From the NCBI GenBank assembly GCA_964479945.1, contig CAYZNS010000004.1, positions 13,715-77,714 on the forward strand: a stretch of DNA of 64,000 bases, in the 5' to 3' direction. Positions 6-46,026 of the stretch are shown one piece after another. Made by a program: the position numbers and the translations under genes. How positions within the stretch are numbered: position 1 is the stretch's first letter; each line of letters opens with the position of its first letter. The stretch comes from an uncultured Candidatus Saccharibacteria bacterium. Its GTDB lineage: Bacteria > Patescibacteriota > Minisyncoccia > Ryanbacterales > 2-02-FULL-48-12. Below the pieces are notes generated by a model. It made no database searches. It had not been told where the DNA came from and worked only from the letters and a program-made list of their open reading frames with translations.

Positions 6-1382
6 TTGTATCATTTTCCATCAGGATTTTTATCTGCCCCGAAAGTAAAATACTTAAAAGCCCGTGAGGCGCCCCCGCCCGCGAATTTGCCGGAGAGCGG
101 CATTCTTTTGGGCGAAAACGTATTCCGCGGTGATCGTTCTCTGATACACATTCAACCGGATGACCGTCGTCGCCATCTTTATACTATCGGGCAGACAGGT
201 ACTGGGAAAACTAATTTCATGAAGAGTATGATCCATCAGGATATTATGGCGGGTCAGGGCGTATGTTTTATAGATCCGCATGGTGAGACAACAGAAGAAC
301 TTCTAGAGCTTATTCCCAAAGAGCGCGTGGACGACGTAATTTATTTTAATCCGGGCGACGTGGCGCGCCCGCTGGGCCTCAACATGCTGGAATACGATGC
401 GCGGTTTCCGGAGCAGAAAACGTTTGTGGTAAACGAGATGTTCAGCATTTTCCAGAAGCTCTACGGCGCGGTACCCGAATCCATGGGACCTATGTTTGAG
501 CAGTATTTCCGCAACGCCACCATGCTGGTGATGGACGATCCTGCATCCGGCAGCACGCTTATGGAAATTGAGCGCGTACTTTCTGACAAGGACTTCCGCG
601 CGTATAAACTCTCACGCACGAAAAACGTAGTAGTGCGCACGTTTTGGGAAGACGTAGCGGAGAAAGCGGGCGGGGAAGCCGCGCTTCAGAATATCGTCCC
701 CTATATTACATCCAAGTTTGACATTTTTCTTGCCAATGAAATCATGCGGCCTATTGTAGGGCAGGAGGCGTCCGCGTTTAATTTCCGTGAAGTAATGGAT
801 GCGCAAAAAATTCTTCTGGTGAATCTTTCCAAAGGGCGGCTTGGCGACATTAACTCCCATCTTTTGGGGCTTATTATAGTAGGCAAACTTCTTATGGCGG
901 CCCTTTCGCGCGGGGAGATGCCGCAACTGGAACGCAGGGATTTTTATCTCTATATTGACGAGTTTCAGAATGTTACCACGAAATCCATAGAGACGATTCT
1001 TTCCGAAGCCCGCAAGTACCGCCTGAACTTGACCGTTGCGCACCAGTTCATCGGGCAGTTGGAAGAGAATATAAAGAAAGCGGTGTTCGGCAACGTGGGG
1101 TCCATGGTTTCATTTCGCATCGGCGCGGATGATGCGGAATATATAGAAGATCAATTCGCGCCGGTGTTCAACGCGCATGATCTTATGAACATAGACAACT
1201 ACAATGCGTATGTGAAATTATTAATAAATGGGCAAACGTCGCGTCCGTTCAACATCCGCACGTTCGCCGTGCCGGAAGGGAACAAGGCGGTGGCGGAGGC
1301 GGTAAAGGAATTATCAAGCATAAAATACGGCAAGCCGCGCGAAGAGGTGGAGTGGAAAATAGCATCGCGCTTCCGCGCGTAG
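6..1382 (+). CDS. TraD/TrwB/VirD4-family P-loop ATPase (type IV secretion coupling-protein-like); probably 5'-truncated by window edge
   Basis: Walker A GQTGTGKT, Walker B LYIDEFQ, C-terminal RKYRLNLTVAHQFIGQL motif typical of the coupling-protein/FtsK-HerA clade; ORF opens with TTG 5 nt from the window start. Confidence 0.5.
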   Translation: MYHFPSGFLSAPKVKYLKAREAPPPANLPESGILLGENVFRGDRSLIHIQPDDRRRHLYTIGQTGTGKTNFMKSMIHQDIMAGQGVCFIDPHGETTEELLELIPKERVDDVIYFNPGDVARPLGLNMLEYDARFPEQKTFVVNEMFSIFQKLYGAVPESMGPMFEQYFRNATMLVMDDPASGSTLMEIERVLSDKDFRAYKLSRTKNVVVRTFWEDVAEKAGGEAALQNIVPYITSKFDIFLANEIMRPIVGQEASAFNFREVMDAQKILLVNLSKGRLGDINSHLLGLIIVGKLLMAALSRGEMPQLERRDFYLYIDEFQNVTTKSIETILSEARKYRLNLTVAHQFIGQLEENIKKAVFGNVGSMVSFRIGADDAEYIEDQFAPVFNAHDLMNIDNYNAYVKLLINGQTSRPFNIRTFAVPEGNKAVAEAVKELSSIKYGKPREEVEWKIASRFRA

Positions 1383-2817: not shown

Positions 2818-3948
2818 ATGCAGAATCAAGTTTTATATAGAAAATACCGTCCCCAGAGCTTTGGCGACGTGGTGGGGCAGGCGCATGTTACAACCCTTCT
2901 AAAAAATGCCGTCAAGCTGAACCGGGTGGCGCACGCGTTTTTGTTTTCCGGTCCGCGCGGCACGGGAAAAACTACCGTCGCGCGGCTCTTGGCGAAAGCG
3001 GCAAGTTGCGAGAAGCCCAAAGACGGCGAGCCATGCAACACATGCGGCATATGCAAAGAATTTTCTTCCGGCGCCTCGCTTGATCTTATTGAAATAGACG
3101 CGGCCTCTTCCCGCGGCATTGACGATATTCGCGAACTGCGGGAGTCTGTGCGCTTGGCGCCCAGCCGCGGCAGGTATAAGGCGTACATCATCGACGAGGT
3201 GCATATGTTGACAAAAGAAGCATTTAATGCTCTCCTCAAAACTTTGGAAGAGCCGCCGGCGCACGCGATGTTCATTCTTGCGACCACGGAGTTTCAAAAA
3301 ATGCCGGAGACCATTGTATCCCGCACGCAGCATTATGAATTCCGTAAAATCGCAACGCTCGCCATTGTGGACCGCCTCTCCATGTTGGCAGAGAAGGAGG
3401 GGATCAGCGCCGAAAAAGATGCGTTGCGCCTTATAGGCATATTTGCAGACGGCGGCTTGCGCGACGCCGAGAGCATGCTGGGGCAGGTGGCAAGCGGCCG
3501 CGATAAGCTCACGGCGGAAGACGTGCGGCTGGTGCTGGGCGCGCCCAAGGAAGAACACGTACACGCGTTTATTGTCGCACTCTTTGCCAAAGACGCGGGA
3601 ACGGCGGCGCGCATTGCGAACGCCGCGATTGATGAAGGAACGGATCCGCAGATGTATCTTAAAATGAATATCCGCAATGTGCGGCATGTATTATTGCAAC
3701 GGCTTGACGCGAGCGCTGCGGTTCGTCTCAAGGACGATCTTACCGAAGCCGAACAGAAGTTTCTGGGTGCCGTGCCTGTAACGTTGAGTGTTCCGCAGTT
3801 GGAACACATGTTAAAATCCTTGATCGACGCCTACTGGATGAGTTATCGCGCTGTCTTCCCCCAGTTGCCGCTGGAGCTTGCCATTGTGGAAATTTTGCGG
3901 GATAGTTTTGGGGAGGAGAAAAAAGCAGTAAATCATATTGGGGAGTAG
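2818..3948 (+). CDS. dnaX: DNA polymerase III subunit gamma/tau, short form
   Basis: YRPQSFGDVVGQ..., Walker A GPRGTGKT, Zn-module CxxC, DEVHML box. Confidence 0.88.
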   Translation: MQNQVLYRKYRPQSFGDVVGQAHVTTLLKNAVKLNRVAHAFLFSGPRGTGKTTVARLLAKAASCEKPKDGEPCNTCGICKEFSSGASLDLIEIDAASSRGIDDIRELRESVRLAPSRGRYKAYIIDEVHMLTKEAFNALLKTLEEPPAHAMFILATTEFQKMPETIVSRTQHYEFRKIATLAIVDRLSMLAEKEGISAEKDALRLIGIFADGGLRDAESMLGQVASGRDKLTAEDVRLVLGAPKEEHVHAFIVALFAKDAGTAARIANAAIDEGTDPQMYLKMNIRNVRHVLLQRLDASAAVRLKDDLTEAEQKFLGAVPVTLSVPQLEHMLKSLIDAYWMSYRAVFPQLPLELAIVEILRDSFGEEKKAVNHIGE

Positions 3949-4009
3949 TGAAACGGTATCACGCGGGACTTTGGATCCCTAATTCCAGGTTCGAATCCTG
4001 GCTCCCCAG
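3939..4009 (+). tRNA. tRNA-Gln (anticodon TTG)
   Basis: manual cloverleaf: acceptor TGGGGAG/CTCCCCA, D-arm GTGA-AACGGTA-TCAC, anticodon loop CTTTGGA, T-arm CCAGG-TTCGAAT-CCTGG; 5' end overlaps the dnaX stop. Confidence 0.6.
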
Positions 4010-4072
4010 CCGCTAATATTGTTTACGTACAAACGTTCCAACTTTCCCCAAGCATAATCCTCGCGGTTACCA

Positions 4073-5469: not shown

Positions 5470-7371
5470 ATGTCAAAGATACTAGGAATTGACCTCGGTA
5501 CCACCAACTCCGCCATGGCGGTGATGCAGGCGGGGCAGCCGAAAATAATAGAAAACAAAGAAGGGAACCGCACCACGCCGTCCATGGTAGCGGTCTCTAA
5601 AACGGCCGAGCGCCTGGCCGGTTTGCTTGCCAAGCGTCAGGCAATTACGAATCCTAAAAACACCATTTATTCCGCGAAGCGTCTGATCGGGCGCACGTTC
5701 ACGGACGCGCAGCTGGATAAGGACAAAGAAACCCTGCCATATGACATCCGCGCGTCGGCAAGCGGCGGCGTTGAGATTCGCATGGCGGATAAATGGTATA
5801 GGCCGGAGGAGATCTCTGCTATGGTTCTCCAGAAACTCAAGCATGATGCCGAAGAATACTTGGGCGAGAAAATAACGGAAGCGATTATAACCGTTCCTGC
5901 GTATTTTGACGACGATCAGCGGCAGGCAACCAAAAATGCGGGTGAGATAGCGGGCCTTACCGTGCGCCGAATTATCAACGAGCCCACGGCGGCCGCGCTT
6001 GCGTACGGGTTTGATAAAAAGAAGAACGAAAAGATAGTAGTGTATGATTTCGGCGGCGGCACGTTTGACGTATCAGTGCTGGAAATCGGCGACAATACCA
6101 TTGAGGTGCGCGCCACAGGCGGAGATACGCATTTGGGAGGGGATGATTTTGATCAGAAAATTATTGATCACCTTGTCGTGGAATTCAAGAAGGAATCCGG
6201 CATAGATATCTCAAAGGACGGCCTTGCCCTTCAGCGTCTTAAAGAAGCGGCGGAGAAAGCAAAACATGAATTATCTACTACGGTAGAGACGGAAATAAAT
6301 ATTCCCTTTATAACTTCCGGCGCGGACGGGCCGCAGCATCTCCTAATCAAGCTCGCGCGCGCCAAGTTGGAATCCCTGGTGAGTGAATATGTCTTACGCT
6401 CCGTGGAAATAACCAGGCAGGTAGTGCGCGATGCAAAATTTGAACTACACGCGATAGACGAAGTCATTTTGGTGGGCGGACAAACGCGCATGCCAGCCAT
6501 TGTAAATGCGGTGAAGGAACTGTTCGGCAAAGAGCCGAACAAGTCCATCAACCCGGATGAAGTGGTGGCGGTTGGAGCAGCTATTCAGGGCGGCATTATG
6601 CAGGGAGACGTAAAGGATGTTCTCCTTCTGGATGTAACACCGCTTTCGTTTGGCATTGAAACATTAGGGGGGGTATTTACGCGCCTTATAGAAAAAAATA
6701 CCACCATTCCCACGGCCAAAAGCCAGATATTTTCCACCGCCGCGGACAATCAAACGTCCGTGGAAGTGCACGTGCTGCAAGGGGAGCGGGAATTCGCGCG
6801 GGACAACAAAAGCTTGGGCCGGTTTATATTGGACGGTATCCCGCCTGCCCCCCGCGGCATGCCGCAAGTGGAGGTTACGTTTGACATTGATGCGAACGGC
6901 ATCCTCAATGTGAAAGCAAAAGACAAAGCGTCCGGCAAAGAACAATCCATTCGTATTGAAGCGTCTACCGGACTCTCCAAGGAAGAGATAGAGCGCATGA
7001 AGCAGGATGCGGCCGCGCATGCCGAGGAAGACAAGAAACGCAAAGAGACTGTGGAAATGAAAAATACGGCAGACGCGCTTATCTACACGGCGGAGAAGTC
7101 TCTCCGCGACGCGGGCGACAAAGCGCCGGAAGATATCCGCAAAGACGTGGAGACGAAAATAGAGGATCTCAAAAAAGCGAAGGAAGGGGATGACGCGCAG
7201 CAGATTCAAAACGTGTCCAGCGCGCTGCAAGCATCGCTTTCAAAGATAGGCGAGTATCTCTACAAGCAGCAGCCGCAAGAGAACAAAGGCACGCAATCAA
7301 CTGATGATAAGAAAGACAATGTGAAAGATGCGGAGTTCAAGGATGTAGAAGATAAGAATAAAGAATCATGA
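5470..7371 (+). CDS. dnaK: molecular chaperone DnaK (Hsp70)
   Basis: [18 protein letters not shown], full Hsp70 architecture, 633 aa. Confidence 0.95.
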
Positions 7372-44884: not shown

Positions 44885-45277
44885 ATGCTACTAGGAACTG
44901 CCATCACTATAGCCGCCTTGAGTCTTATGGGAATATGCGTCCTCTACTTGCGGCATGTTCCCGCCGTTGCCCGTATGACGCCGGAAGAGCTTGCCGGCGT
45001 GTTGCAGCGGGAACGGCCCTTGCTTACGCAGGCATTGTATAATGCACGGGGGGTATCAAGGAAAATTTGGCACCAGTATCTGCGCGCAAGAATACTTACA
45101 TTCCTGGTAAGAAAGATTTATCAGGTTCGGATTGTGATATTGCGTACAGAGCAGGCGTTGTTTCGTGCCGCCCGGGGGTTGCGGAAACGTTCACAAACTA
45201 ATCAGCCGCCTTCGGATTATTGGCAGGACATCCACGGCTGGCGTAAAACCGTGCATTGGCGAAAGAAAGAGGAGTGA
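44885..45277 (+). CDS. hypothetical membrane-anchored basic protein
   Basis: N-terminal TM helix, Arg/Lys-rich remainder. Confidence 0.4.
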   Translation: MLLGTAITIAALSLMGICVLYLRHVPAVARMTPEELAGVLQRERPLLTQALYNARGVSRKIWHQYLRARILTFLVRKIYQVRIVILRTEQALFRAARGLRKRSQTNQPPSDYWQDIHGWRKTVHWRKKEE

Positions 45278-45284
45278 TCTGCTC

Positions 45285-45481
45285 GCCACCTTAGCTCAGC
45301 GGCAGAGTCCCGTCTACATTGACTATTGTGGTAAGCCGAAGTAGCTCAGCGGTAGAGCAACTGTTTTGTAAACAGTAGGTCGCGAGTTCGAATCTCGCCT
45401 TCGGCTCATTATTCGGCTTACCACATAATGAATGTTGACGGGATAAAGCATGTGTCCTCGGTTCGAATCCGAGAGGTGGCT
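45285..45481 (+). tRNA. tRNA-like gene interrupted between anticodon-stem halves by a 116-nt insert
   Basis: 5' half GCCACCT-TA-GCTC-AGCGGCA-GAGT-C-CCGTC and 3' half GACGG…CTCGG-TTCGAAT-CCGAG-AGGTGGC-T pair as acceptor/D/T arms; TTGAC direct repeat at both junctions; no canonical anticodon loop reconstructable. Confidence 0.45.
45335..45406 (+). tRNA. tRNA-Thr (anticodon TGT) nested inside the interrupted tRNA-like gene
   Basis: GCCGAAG-TA-GCTC-AGCGGTA-GAGC-A-ACTGT-TTTGTAA-ACAGT-AGGTC-GCGAG-TTCGAAT-CTCGC-CTTCGGC-T. Confidence 0.8.
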
Positions 45482-45510
45482 CTTCTCATTATTAATTAAT
45501 TTTTAAAAAA

Positions 45511-46026
45511 ATGATCAAAATAGGAGAATCCGCGCCAGACTTTAAGTTGAAAGGATATTTCAACGGCAAGTTCAAAGAATACGCGCTGAAAGATTATAAG
45601 AACAAATGGGTAGTGATATTTTTCTATCCGCTGGATTTTACGTTCGTCTGCCCCACGGAAATTAAGGAGTTTTCGGCAAAGTACGCAAATTTCAAGAAAT
45701 TGAACGCGGAAGTGGTCGGCGTGTCCGTTGACTCGGAACACTCGCACAAGGCATGGGTGGAAGGGCCGCTCGGCAAAATTAATTTTCCGCTGCTGTCGGA
45801 CTTTCACAAACGCATGGCGGAGGATTACGAAGTGCTTATTGAAGATGAAGGCACTGCGTTGCGGGGGACATTCATCATTGATCCATATGGGAAACTGAAG
45901 TACGCAGTACTATCTCATAACGATGTCGGCCGTTCCGTTGACGAGACGCTTCGCGTGCTCGCCGCGCTCCAGACCGGAAAGCTCTGCCCCGTAGAATGGA
46001 AACCCGGGGAGAAGACATTAAACTAA
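45511..46026 (+). CDS. peroxiredoxin (AhpC/TSA family)
   Basis: peroxidatic Cys motif FYPLDFTFVCPTEI. Confidence 0.85.
   Translation: MIKIGESAPDFKLKGYFNGKFKEYALKDYKNKWVVIFFYPLDFTFVCPTEIKEFSAKYANFKKLNAEVVGVSVDSEHSHKAWVEGPLGKINFPLLSDFHKRMAEDYEVLIEDEGTALRGTFIIDPYGKLKYAVLSHNDVGRSVDETLRVLAALQTGKLCPVEWKPGEKTLN

Follow-up and report, generated by a model that had tools for sequence, protein, structure and literature searches.

How does a complete tRNA gene come to lie inside another tRNA gene of the same specificity, within a housekeeping region of a bacterial genome? The question is raised by positions 45285-45481 (plus strand) of a 64-kb stretch of contig CAYZNS010000004.1 (the window, whose numbering is used throughout unless another locus is named). 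The window comes from a Candidatus Ryanbacteria-like member of the Parcubacteria, in the candidate phyla radiation, and carries bacterial marks such as an rpsB-tsf operon and EF-Ts. At this locus a tRNA-Thr(UGU) gene is enclosed by the two halves of a second, broken tRNA-Thr(UGU) gene. We favor the explanation that the resident gene was replaced, at the DNA level, by a palindrome-flanked cassette bringing a gene for the same tRNA, and that such like-in-like replacement has recurred among related bacteria; we put its probability at about 0.62. tRNA genes are usually seen as the most static of genes, on which large mobile elements land but which take no active part themselves; in this minimal genome one such gene appears to have been replaced in place by its own counterpart, with the old gene left as two halves. 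The genome was covered by the window and its relatives by loci fetched with the neighboring gene orf130 (cited by L numbers), among which five to six nests of this kind were available.

Structure of the nested locus

The inner gene (45335-45406, plus strand), described in the initial annotation of the window as a complete tRNA-Thr(UGU), is called tRNA-Thr(tgt) by ARAGORN and is matched by the Rfam model RF00005 with 76.9 bits (E=4e-15), against a gathering threshold of 29; alone it folds as a cloverleaf at -27.9 kcal/mol. The surrounding gene lies on the same strand in two pieces. Its 5' half (45285-45307) reads GCCACCT-TA-GCTCAGCGGCAGAG and covers tRNA positions 1-24, that is the acceptor strand GCCACCT and the D-arm up to GAG. 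Its 3' half (45444-45481) covers positions 36-73 and consists of TAA of the anticodon loop, an orphan 3' strand of the anticodon stem (AGCAT), the variable loop, a T-arm of the form CTCGG-TTCGAAT-CCGAG (45457-45473), the acceptor strand AGGTGGC (45474-45480), which pairs with GCCACCT at 45285-45291, and the discriminator T (45481). The acceptor pairing, the canonical T-arm and the near identity of the outer D-arm (45292-45307) with the inner one had all been pointed out in the initial annotation and are borne out here, the two D-arms agreeing in 15 of 16 positions.

Relative to the intact allele found in relatives, 11 nt of the outer gene (positions 25-35) are gone, comprising the D-stem's final base, base 26, the anticodon stem's 5' strand and the loop as far as G35. 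As the anticodon is among the missing positions, the outer gene cannot decode; this agrees with the earlier failure to build a 7-nt anticodon loop from the joined halves, the AGCAT strand having lost its partner. Joined directly, the halves yield no tRNA, and joined at the new stem they yield a cloverleaf with a 2-nt loop. Standard ARAGORN and Rfam searches report the inner tRNA alone. When introns of up to 220 nt are allowed, a check suggested at the outset, ARAGORN does call the outer gene, but as 'tRNA-Ser(act) i(34,117)' at 45285-45482 and not as a UGU-reading tRNA. Derived from a functional tRNA and deprived of its anticodon region, the outer gene has the properties of a tRNA pseudogene. 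Because the inner gene is canonical in structure and the outer anticodon is lost, we infer that the inner gene is functional and supplies the cell's tRNA-Thr(UGU), as the sole functional copy at the locus.

The insert between the outer halves is 136 nt long (45308-45443), 72 nt of it being the inner tRNA, and is flanked by GAG and TAAA. It opens with a leader (45308-45334, plus strand) of the form TCCCGTC TACATTGACTATTGTGGTAA and closes with a trailer (45407-45443, plus strand) made up of CATTA, TTCGGC (45412-45417), TTACCACATAATGAATGTT and GACGGGA; the first seven and last seven nucleotides are insert ends conserved in other nests. Leader and trailer contain the arms of a palindrome with a perfect core of 14 nt (45327-45340 / 45412-45425) and an outer part of 19 nt at 84% (45308-45326 / 45425-45443). 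The inverted repeat was thus correctly recognized in the initial annotation as imperfect, but at about 33 nt per arm it is longer than the 16 nt given there. The trailer element TTCGGC is a second copy of the 3' acceptor strand of the inner tRNA, and the palindrome therefore takes in the first 6 nt of the inner tRNA itself. The arms form 29 Watson-Crick pairs and no G-U pair, with a duplex energy of -42.8 kcal/mol against -12.1 +/- 3.1 for shuffled arms. The direct repeat TTGAC, earlier proposed as a target-site duplication, exists but is not one, because it is part of the helix and is absent from the nests of L017, L039 and L007; the 11 target nucleotides were lost, not duplicated.

The 198 nt of the locus are predicted to fold at -83 kcal/mol (z = -6.0, with none of 200 shuffles equally stable) into a structure comprising the outer acceptor stem, the outer T-arm and a long rod that carries the inner tRNA, the helix running continuously from the junction with 1x1 mismatches only. 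A fold of such stability, together with the preservation of all outer stems in the window, L017 and L007, raises the possibility of a functional composite RNA, in which the outer tRNA-like body and the helix form a selected scaffold for processing or expression of the inner tRNA. In a variant of this idea the inner tRNA is an 'intron' cut out by RNase P and RNase Z, with the outer halves paired or ligated and functional. We regard either form as unlikely, since the outer genes of the window, L017 and L039 have neither anticodon nor positions 25-35, and comparison of the nests adds further difficulties that are given below.

The intact gene in relatives

Was there an unbroken gene at this site? 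The comparison with related genomes that had been proposed for finding an empty site does uncover one: an intact tRNA-Thr(UGU) whose acceptor, D-arm and T-arm are the same occupies the locus in L016, L021-23, L030, L035-37 and L042-45. It reads GCCACCTTAGCTCAGCGGCAGAGCAACGCTTTTGTAAAGCGTGGGTCCTCGGTTCAAATCCGAGAGGTGGCTC in L016/37, L021/22 and L030, with variants in L023/L042-45, and is followed by prx in L016/L037 and L042-L045 and by another gene in L021/L022 and L030. The outer 5' half in the window is identical to the intact tRNA of L016, L022 and L030 in 23 of 23 positions and the 3' half in 36 of 39, giving 59/62 for both halves combined; the three mismatches map to the orphan strand of the stem, to the variable loop and to the T-loop. 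On this comparison the outer halves represent what is left of the lineage's resident tRNA-Thr(UGU) gene. An identical stretch of 198 nt is found in four independent metagenome assemblies, and the nest is therefore no assembly artefact or chimera; groundwater samples containing it include ERZ27245644 and JGI 3300009444 and 3300025157. The earlier proposal of a tRNA gene inactivated by a tRNA-carrying miniature element is upheld in its core by the empty site and by the conserved inverted ends of the insert; the mobility that it implied is considered in the next section.

Several variations of the locus were observed in addition. L019, L020 and L041 carry an intact tRNA of the GCCGGCG type, and their close relatives L017, L022, L024 and L030 have the GCCACCT type; hosts that are 81-84% identical in tsf and orf130 differ in the acceptor, anticodon and T stems of the tRNA-Thr(UGU) at this same locus. 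Such differences suggest that whole tRNA-Thr(UGU) alleles may be replaced among relatives without leaving a scar. The tRNA-Thr(UGU) is inverted between orf130 and prx in L006 (1006-1078), L024 (1890-1964), L026-L029, L032-L034 and L040 (minus strand). In L006, L032 and L040 the 3' end of the inverted tRNA abuts the orf130 stop codon, which overlaps the post-discriminator position (TGA-GCC...), and L006 keeps the flank TTAGGCGAT, which follows the inner tRNA in L007, as if the tRNA body alone had flipped. Seven contigs (L031, L034, L036, L038, L040, L044 and L046) end inside or at this tRNA.

Recurrent nests with conserved ends

Does the nest occur more than once? In L017 and L018 both the resident allele and the junctions are as in the window (...GCAGAG/TCCCGCC...GGCGGGA/TAAAGCGT...), with an inner tRNA that in L017 matches the window's in 58 of 72 positions and arms that are unalignable with those of the window. 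L039 has the same junctions and an inner tRNA 69/72 identical to that of L017, set in a different resident allele (GCCGGCA..., stem strand ACAGT); its outer T-arm and 3' acceptor strand are gone, the 3' half scoring 11/39 and the 5' half 21/23. The insert of L007 starts with CCTGCCCGCC and ends with ATGGCAGGCGGG, that of L039 ending with ATGGCTGGCGGG. It lies after position 23, the outer 3' part is complete from G24, and removal of the insert by a cut at 23/24 leaves a flawless tRNA-Thr(UGU). L047, a decayed relative of L007, has kept the inner tRNA along with 13 nt at the start of the trailer; it has no outer 5' half, and its outer anticodon arm shows heavy substitution, for the most part from G to A.

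A further case concerns the other threonine isoacceptor. In L035 (1917-2006) an intact, CCA-bearing tRNA-Thr(UGU) and then a small hairpin precede a 16-nt 5' fragment of tRNA-Thr(GGU), which is followed by TTGCCCCGCCAGA (TTGCCCCGCC) and then by a whole tRNA-Thr(GGU), inside which the contig ends. This is probably the same type of event. The orf130 of L035 is identical to that of L037, where the tRNA directly precedes prx, which points to structural variation at the level of strains.

The nests share the insert ends TCCCGYC...GRCGGGA, the 5' end TCCCGYC being present in the window, L017 and L039. A terminal inverted repeat of this kind (TCCCGTC...GACGGGA in the window, with ends conserved in L017, L039 and L007) is also characteristic of miniature transposable elements with inverted repeats (MITEs). 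The trailer repeats the 3' acceptor strand of the inner tRNA as TTCGGC in the window and as ATCGGCT in L017 and L039, covarying with the inner acceptor, so that in these three nests the palindrome reaches 6 nt into the inner tRNA; the arms of L007 merely extend the inner acceptor stem. The break in the outer gene follows nt 16 in L035 and nt 23 in L007, and in the window, L017 and L039 it follows nt 24.

These regularities invite a sharper version of the replacement reading, compatible with it, in which the insert is a mobile, non-autonomous palindromic cassette (MITE-, integron-cassette- or homing-like) that carries tRNA-Thr, inserts into the cognate gene, and is moved by a recombinase or nuclease encoded elsewhere or by homologous recombination through the conserved outer halves. 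We take this to be a serious candidate with odds somewhat below even. The ends are conserved though the arms are unalignable, with a 3' end (ATGGCWGGCGGG) common to L039 and L007; the same junction is used in the alleles GCCACCT/AGCGT (L017) and GCCGGCA/ACAGT (L039), whose inner tRNAs are so alike; the nests are patchy on the host tree; the tRNA-Thr(GGU) case of L035, with its 5' fragment, TTGCCCCGCC and whole gene, would be a further member; and recA is encoded in the window. Such a cassette would nevertheless have to move without target-site duplication and with variable breakpoints in the outer gene. A Pfam scan of 40 of the 50 window open reading frames (ORFs) of at least 100 aa detects no integrase, transposase or homing endonuclease, and none adjoins any related nest. 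A search for other copies of the module, as initially suggested, was made with the arms across the 64-kb window and 17 related loci and finds them nowhere else; blastn-short returns self matches and a 12-nt end common to L017 and L039. As the window yields neither a further copy of the arms nor, among the ORFs scanned, a transposase or integrase, mobility in the sense of MITEs or short interspersed elements, as first envisaged for the insert, is conjectural. A scan of viral contigs for the D-arm/TCCCGYC junction motif likewise gave zero matches; a scan for CCCGCC plus a tRNA start gave unspecific matches to GC-rich prophage tRNAs and was uninformative. A likeness of the window trailer to the upstream flank of L021/L022 (TGAATGTTG) was set aside as too short, blastn-short giving one unrelated 10-nt match in the window.

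The fact that the palindrome begins inside the inner tRNA (window, L017, L039) or extends its acceptor stem (L007) resembles fold-back priming, and could be accommodated by a local replication accident, namely template switching or snap-back at the self-complementary ends of a tRNA, with no foreign DNA involved. The 5' fragment of L035, which agrees fully with how its inner tRNA begins, and the in-situ flips with breakpoints at tRNA ends in L006, L024 and L040 would fit such a process. Two observations make us consider it very unlikely. Firstly, inner and outer genes differ strongly, in their acceptors (GCCGAAG versus GCCACCT) and in their anticodon and T stems, while the outer gene has diverged from the resident allele by only ~5%, and hence the inner gene did not arise by recent copying of the outer one. 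Secondly, the conserved insert ends belong to neither tRNA.

Distribution, age and decay of the nests

Are these nests one inherited structure or several? In a tree of tsf and orf130 they do not form a clade: the sister of the window (L016/L035) has an intact gene; the sister of L017, L040 (91% amino-acid identity), has a resident-type tRNA on the minus strand, its contig ending inside the gene; L039 branches apart from the other nests; and L007 and L047 pair weakly (66% amino-acid identity). Co-transfer of the nests with their flanks was considered and set aside, as nest-bearing loci are not grouped in a prx nucleotide tree, which thus shows no recent transfer of the nests together with their surroundings.

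The resident tRNA is identical in 73 of 73 positions between hosts that share ~68% amino-acid identity, and any substitution in an outer half therefore signals release from constraint. In the window the outer halves carry T25 and three other changes, about 5% substitutions, and in L017 one or two. The two arms of a palindrome differ by 12-19% per nest, counting mismatches and gaps (~12% in the window), or roughly 6-9% per arm, a figure comparable in order to the decay seen in the outer halves. Taken together, these data fit a history in which a perfect palindrome and the break of the gene would have been created together, in events each much younger than the divergence of the hosts, and would imply several independent events with reproducible junctions. 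We infer that the outer halves are a young pseudogene, evolving neutrally together with the arms as a scar.

The same data bear on the composite RNA considered above. Selection on the arms at the RNA level was sought in their mismatches, which over four nests comprise 6 of the G-U type, 2 of the A-C type, 8 transversions and 10 gap positions; the ratio of 6 to 2 is not significant, and without a bias of G-U over A-C nothing marks the helix as an RNA-level, strand-specific structure. A compensatory difference at the base of the helix (CCCGTC/GACGGG in the window versus CCCGCC/GGCGGG in relatives) would suit a functional RNA, as would the restoration of a perfect outer tRNA-Thr(UGU) in L007 once the insert is removed and the precise anticodon-loop nests with flawless outer genes in viral contigs, which are described below. 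The compensatory differences between outer genes were rejected as a sign of selection, for they are already present among intact alleles and are therefore silent on selection following insertion. The outer 3' half has been lost in L039 and the 5' half in L047, splice points and anticodons differ among homologous nests, and the locus has neither a group I core nor a bulge-helix-bulge motif.

A proposed route for in-place replacement

By what steps could the replacement have come about? In the proposed sequence, the resident tRNA-Thr(UGU) gene would have been broken at the DNA level between positions 24 and 36 with loss of 11 nt, and a cassette of ~135 bp put in their place, consisting of a complete tRNA-Thr(UGU) with its leader followed by an inverted copy of the leader and of the first 6 nt of the tRNA. 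The inner tRNA would then be freed by RNase P and 3' processing, and the outer halves and arms discarded. Of the two predicted folds, that in which the inner 5' acceptor strand pairs with its trailer copy (-83.0 kcal/mol) is favored over that with the proper acceptor stem (-62.7 kcal/mol), and maturation would therefore have to rely on co-transcriptional folding: the inner cloverleaf would form during transcription, before the trailer copy captures the 5' acceptor strand, and prompt cleavage would follow. An insertion would survive selection solely when it brings a copy of the same tRNA. Like-in-like nesting may accordingly be a survival filter in genomes with one gene per tRNA, where an insertion is tolerated if a replacement comes along.

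Several points weigh against this reconstruction. The predicted favored fold sequesters the 5' acceptor strand of the inner tRNA, an awkward feature for the source of a cellular tRNA. The window, L017 and L039 share exact junctions despite unalignable arms and distant hosts, which argues for a site-specific agent or for selection and not for pure accident. The flawless tRNA-Thr(UGU) left in L007 upon removal of the insert could mean that the event is very recent or that the outer gene is functional. All outer stems are still perfectly paired in the window, L017 and L007; with 3 substitutions in the window this does not depart significantly from neutrality (p ~0.1, our own estimate), and selection on an outer scaffold is thus possible. 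In L039 the 5' half is intact (21/23) and the 3' half unrecognisable (11/39), unlike uniform neutral decay. Finally, the tally of tRNA-Thr(UGU) genes is that of the 64-kb window alone.

Candidate machineries for the replacement include a site-specific recombinase acting from elsewhere in the genome, homology-guided spread by way of the outer halves, and snap-back or template-switch synthesis. Any model of origin has to account for the like-in-like nesting, the conserved ends beside variable arms, the start of the palindrome inside the inner tRNA, the shared junctions alongside other breakpoints (L007, L035), the orientation flips, and the contigs that end in the tRNA. As origins we rank a cassette family first, the scar of an integrase, discussed next, second, and local snap-back or template switching third.

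Comparison with known systems

Does the locus belong to a system already described? It is related to known kinds of sequence, namely tRNA pseudogenes and fragments made by insertion, and short palindromic elements. Partial tRNA genes are left as attL/attR sites by the integration of mobile elements (PMC9897764). Like these, the present locus has a non-functional tRNA piece beside a complete gene for the same isoacceptor, a tRNA gene as the target of rearrangement, and a remnant that standard annotation overlooks or mis-calls. Unlike them, it keeps both old halves on either side of the new gene, where a classical integration leaves a single, directly repeated 3' fragment; the insert is gene-free and ~135 bp long, as against islands of 5-100 kb; and it has inverted-repeat flanks, a deletion of 11 target nucleotides and no integrase nearby.

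The suggestion that the locus is an integrase att remnant, made in the initial annotation, is in this light possible, but without its classical signature of a 3' tRNA direct repeat and a nearby integrase. In its fullest form it would hold that an element with a tRNA-like attP beside its own tRNA-Thr recombined with the resident gene and was later deleted, leaving tRNA and att sequence behind. tRNA genes are the classical targets of integration, and their fragments are common (PMC9897764). The 5' junction GAGT-CCCGC-C resembles the end of a T-loop followed by the 3' strand of a T-stem, the usual att core, and by our own reading the next 7 nt of L017 resemble an acceptor 3' strand, with 11/16 identity to the 3' end of the inner tRNA; the sequence past the tRNA 3' end differs between L035 and L037 despite their identical orf130; and at this locus many contigs break inside the tRNA and its orientation flips. 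We nonetheless hold such a scar to be improbable. The T-arm likeness is short and statistically insecure, no tRNA segment is directly repeated, and the two outer pieces (nt 1-24 and 36-73) complement each other as parts of a single gene; the inner gene is flanked by inverted and not direct repeats, the sole direct repeat at the locus apart from TTGAC being the 6-7-nt acceptor copy in the trailer; and no integrase or island is present in the window, among the ORFs scanned, or at related loci. A classical att scar was rejected on the same grounds of repeat, island and integrase.

Short palindromic, non-autonomous elements of prokaryotes such as MITEs, REPIN and PATE (surveyed in PMC11602168) share with the insert a size of 110-140 bp, conserved terminal inverted sequences, a non-coding nature and an empty site in relatives. 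The insert differs from them in its complete tRNA cargo, the lack of a target-site duplication, its single copy in 64 kb, its occurrence solely inside, or in replacement of, a cognate tRNA, and a flank that is palindromic throughout and differs between copies. A classical MITE was discounted for want of a target-site duplication and for the loss of 11 target bases.

Group I introns are known from anticodon loops of tRNA genes in Patescibacteria (PMC13011429). The likenesses are the same phylum, a tRNA cut in or near the anticodon loop (here with a 3' junction at 35/36) and evasion of tRNA finders; the differences are the lack of a catalytic core, exons that give no anticodon, and junctions not of the U/...G/ form in an intact loop. 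No RF00028 or other intron is matched by Rfam in the window at the gathering threshold or in 45150-45560 at E<=10, where the inner tRNA alone is found. A group I intron was excluded on account of the missing core and of the ARAGORN splice proposals, which in the window give ACT/ACA and not UGU; in L007 the exons do rejoin correctly when the cut is placed at 23/24. The anticodons derived from such splicing differ among homologous loci (ACT/ACA in the window, GGT in L017, GGC in L007), as do the splice points, which eliminates a conserved intron of any kind.

Disrupted tRNA genes of archaea have bulge-helix-bulge introns at non-canonical positions or are split or permuted (PMC3978253). As in these, the interruption is self-helical and can hold another small RNA, and the D-arm site of L007 is known for archaeal introns; unlike in these, the host is bacterial, there is no bulge-helix-bulge and the exons in the window have no anticodon. 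A bulge-helix-bulge intron was discarded because the motif of 3-nt bulge, 4-bp helix and 3-nt bulge is not in the fold, and neither a splicing endonuclease (EndA) nor a ligase is encoded among the 40 window ORFs scanned. The earlier alternative of an intron-containing or permuted tRNA finds no support at this locus, given the anticodon that cannot be rebuilt, the missing group I core and bulge-helix-bulge, and the inconsistent splice sites.

The interruption of a tRNA by another small RNA has a parallel in an archaeal tRNA-Trp intron that carries a C/D box sRNA. Another likeness is to the attC sites of integrons, which are imperfect palindromes of 60-140 nt with conserved ends and a center free in sequence and length. 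The insert is likewise an imperfect palindrome with conserved ends and a variable center; unlike attC its ends are not an R''/R' core, there is no IntI or attI, and the cargo lies inside the palindrome and not beside it. The published literature that we searched contains no account of one tRNA gene nested within another.

Nests in viral contigs

Is nesting confined to this clade? Viral contigs were searched for two D-arms too close together for tandem genes, followed by a screen with ARAGORN; a scan with AGAGC...GTAGCTCAG gave mostly random matches and was useful after filtering by ARAGORN. Four flawless nests were obtained, in which a tRNA-sized insert of 75-77 nt lies in the anticodon loop of an otherwise perfect tRNA. 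A tRNA-Val(UAC) nest is present in L172 (1133-1281, plus strand) and identically in L176 (5355-5503), from IMGVR_UViG_3300042104_000105 and IMGVR_UViG_3300042099_000057; its 75-nt insert, placed after nt 32, is tRNA-like with an encoded CCA, an Rfam score of 56.2 bits and a 6-nt anticodon loop, its removal leaves a canonical tRNA-Val, and in the tRNA that follows (1285-1366) the anticodon loop is longer by ~10 nt. In L184 (4972-5124, plus strand) a tRNA-Thr(UGU) holds a tRNA-Phe(GAA); in L209 (2871-3022, minus strand) an outer gene of unassigned identity holds a tRNA with a CUA (amber-reading) anticodon loop; and in L257 (11193-11346, minus strand) a tRNA-Arg(UCG) holds an odd tRNA-like gene. 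The viral nests are without arms, and their inner genes end in CCA-like sequences. Exact cuts by RNase P and RNase Z would leave no 7-nt loop in L172 and L184, so that insertion at the DNA level is the simpler reading. Such arrangements are absent from the cultured phages in the collection searched.

Two further arrangements were seen in viral tRNA arrays. In L170 (163-332, plus strand) a tRNA-Phe is enclosed by a 5' tRNA part and a T-arm/acceptor part, which pair with each other, the identity of the outer gene being ambiguous, and in L168 (~6915-7060, plus strand) a tRNA-Asn follows a 5' tRNA fragment, with 7-bp pairing of leader and trailer and no 3' half.

The viral nests suggest that the phenomenon is wider than this clade. 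We tentatively suggest, while holding it less likely than not, that the nest represents an undescribed class of tiny self-compensating tRNA elements with short inverted flanks, which would insert into their cognate gene and so replace it, as part of a wider tRNA-in-tRNA nesting that includes the viral cases. If so, such elements would drive rapid turnover of tRNA alleles in streamlined Parcubacteria. A still bolder version would have the inner tRNA of L007 and of the viral nests removed by the tRNA-processing enzymes and the outer tRNA rejoined, the tRNA thereby acting as an intron. The recurrence of the nests and their reproducible junctions point to a specific route of tRNA allele turnover, and may reflect a novel sort of selfish cassette, very small in size, whose insertion is rendered harmless by its cargo. 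Loci of this kind are invisible or mis-called in standard tRNA annotation, intron-mode ARAGORN giving tRNA-Ser in the window and tRNA-Ala in L007, and the mis-calls can distort the tRNA complements and completeness estimates of candidate-phyla genomes.

Genomic context

The locus lies in a housekeeping region, as the initial annotation had assumed in placing it in the bacterial core: the Pfam scan identifies dnaX, hrcA-grpE-dnaK, xseA, rpoB, rpoC and ftsK, along with recA, ssb, rpsF, ychF, miaA, dnaE, a prfB-like gene and clpB, among others. Upstream of the tRNA lie rpsB, a short tsf (150 aa) and orf130, and downstream a peroxiredoxin gene; the set of neighbors (rpsB, tsf, orf130, prx and genes for a helix-turn-helix protein, an aminotransferase and superoxide dismutase) is identical in relatives. 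The upstream anchor of synteny, orf130 (44885..45277, plus strand), encodes a 130-aa protein with a predicted N-terminal membrane segment, which matches no Pfam family, aligns with its relatives at 52-57% identity and has homologs in 29 clusters, all from Parcubacteria/Ryanbacteria. The downstream anchor, a peroxiredoxin of the AhpC/TSA type (45511..46026, plus strand), was assigned through PF00578/PF08534 on the identical protein of L001 and shows 87-91% amino-acid identity in relatives. As no promoter beyond chance is predicted adjoining the tRNA locus, it is probably transcribed together with the upstream rpsB-tsf-orf130.

Some minor observations concern short likenesses and other genes in the window. 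A segment of orf130 (45207-45221, CGCCTTCGGATTATT, the conserved P-S-D-Y-W codons) resembles the 3' end of the inner tRNA plus trailer (45396-45410, CGCCTTCGGCTCATT) in 13 of 15 positions and is also complementary to the leader and 5' acceptor (TAAGCCGAAG); such likeness is at about chance level for a 600-nt region. The first ORF of the window (6-1382) encodes a VirD4/TrwB/HerA-like ATPase, resembling type IV coupling proteins; of the ORFs scanned, it is the one gene that might be connected with DNA transfer. A tRNA-Gln gene (3939-4011) was considered as a second nest and dismissed, since a copy of its start (TGGGGAGGAG) and a similarity in its trailer are not significant against shuffles and the region has a z of -2.1. 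Its leader lies in the end of the dnaX frame and holds TGGGGAGGAG, a near copy of the first 10 nt of the tRNA, and the gene sits inside a leader/trailer helix of ~25 bp (3887-3912 / 4043-4071) with a duplex energy of -30.8 kcal/mol.

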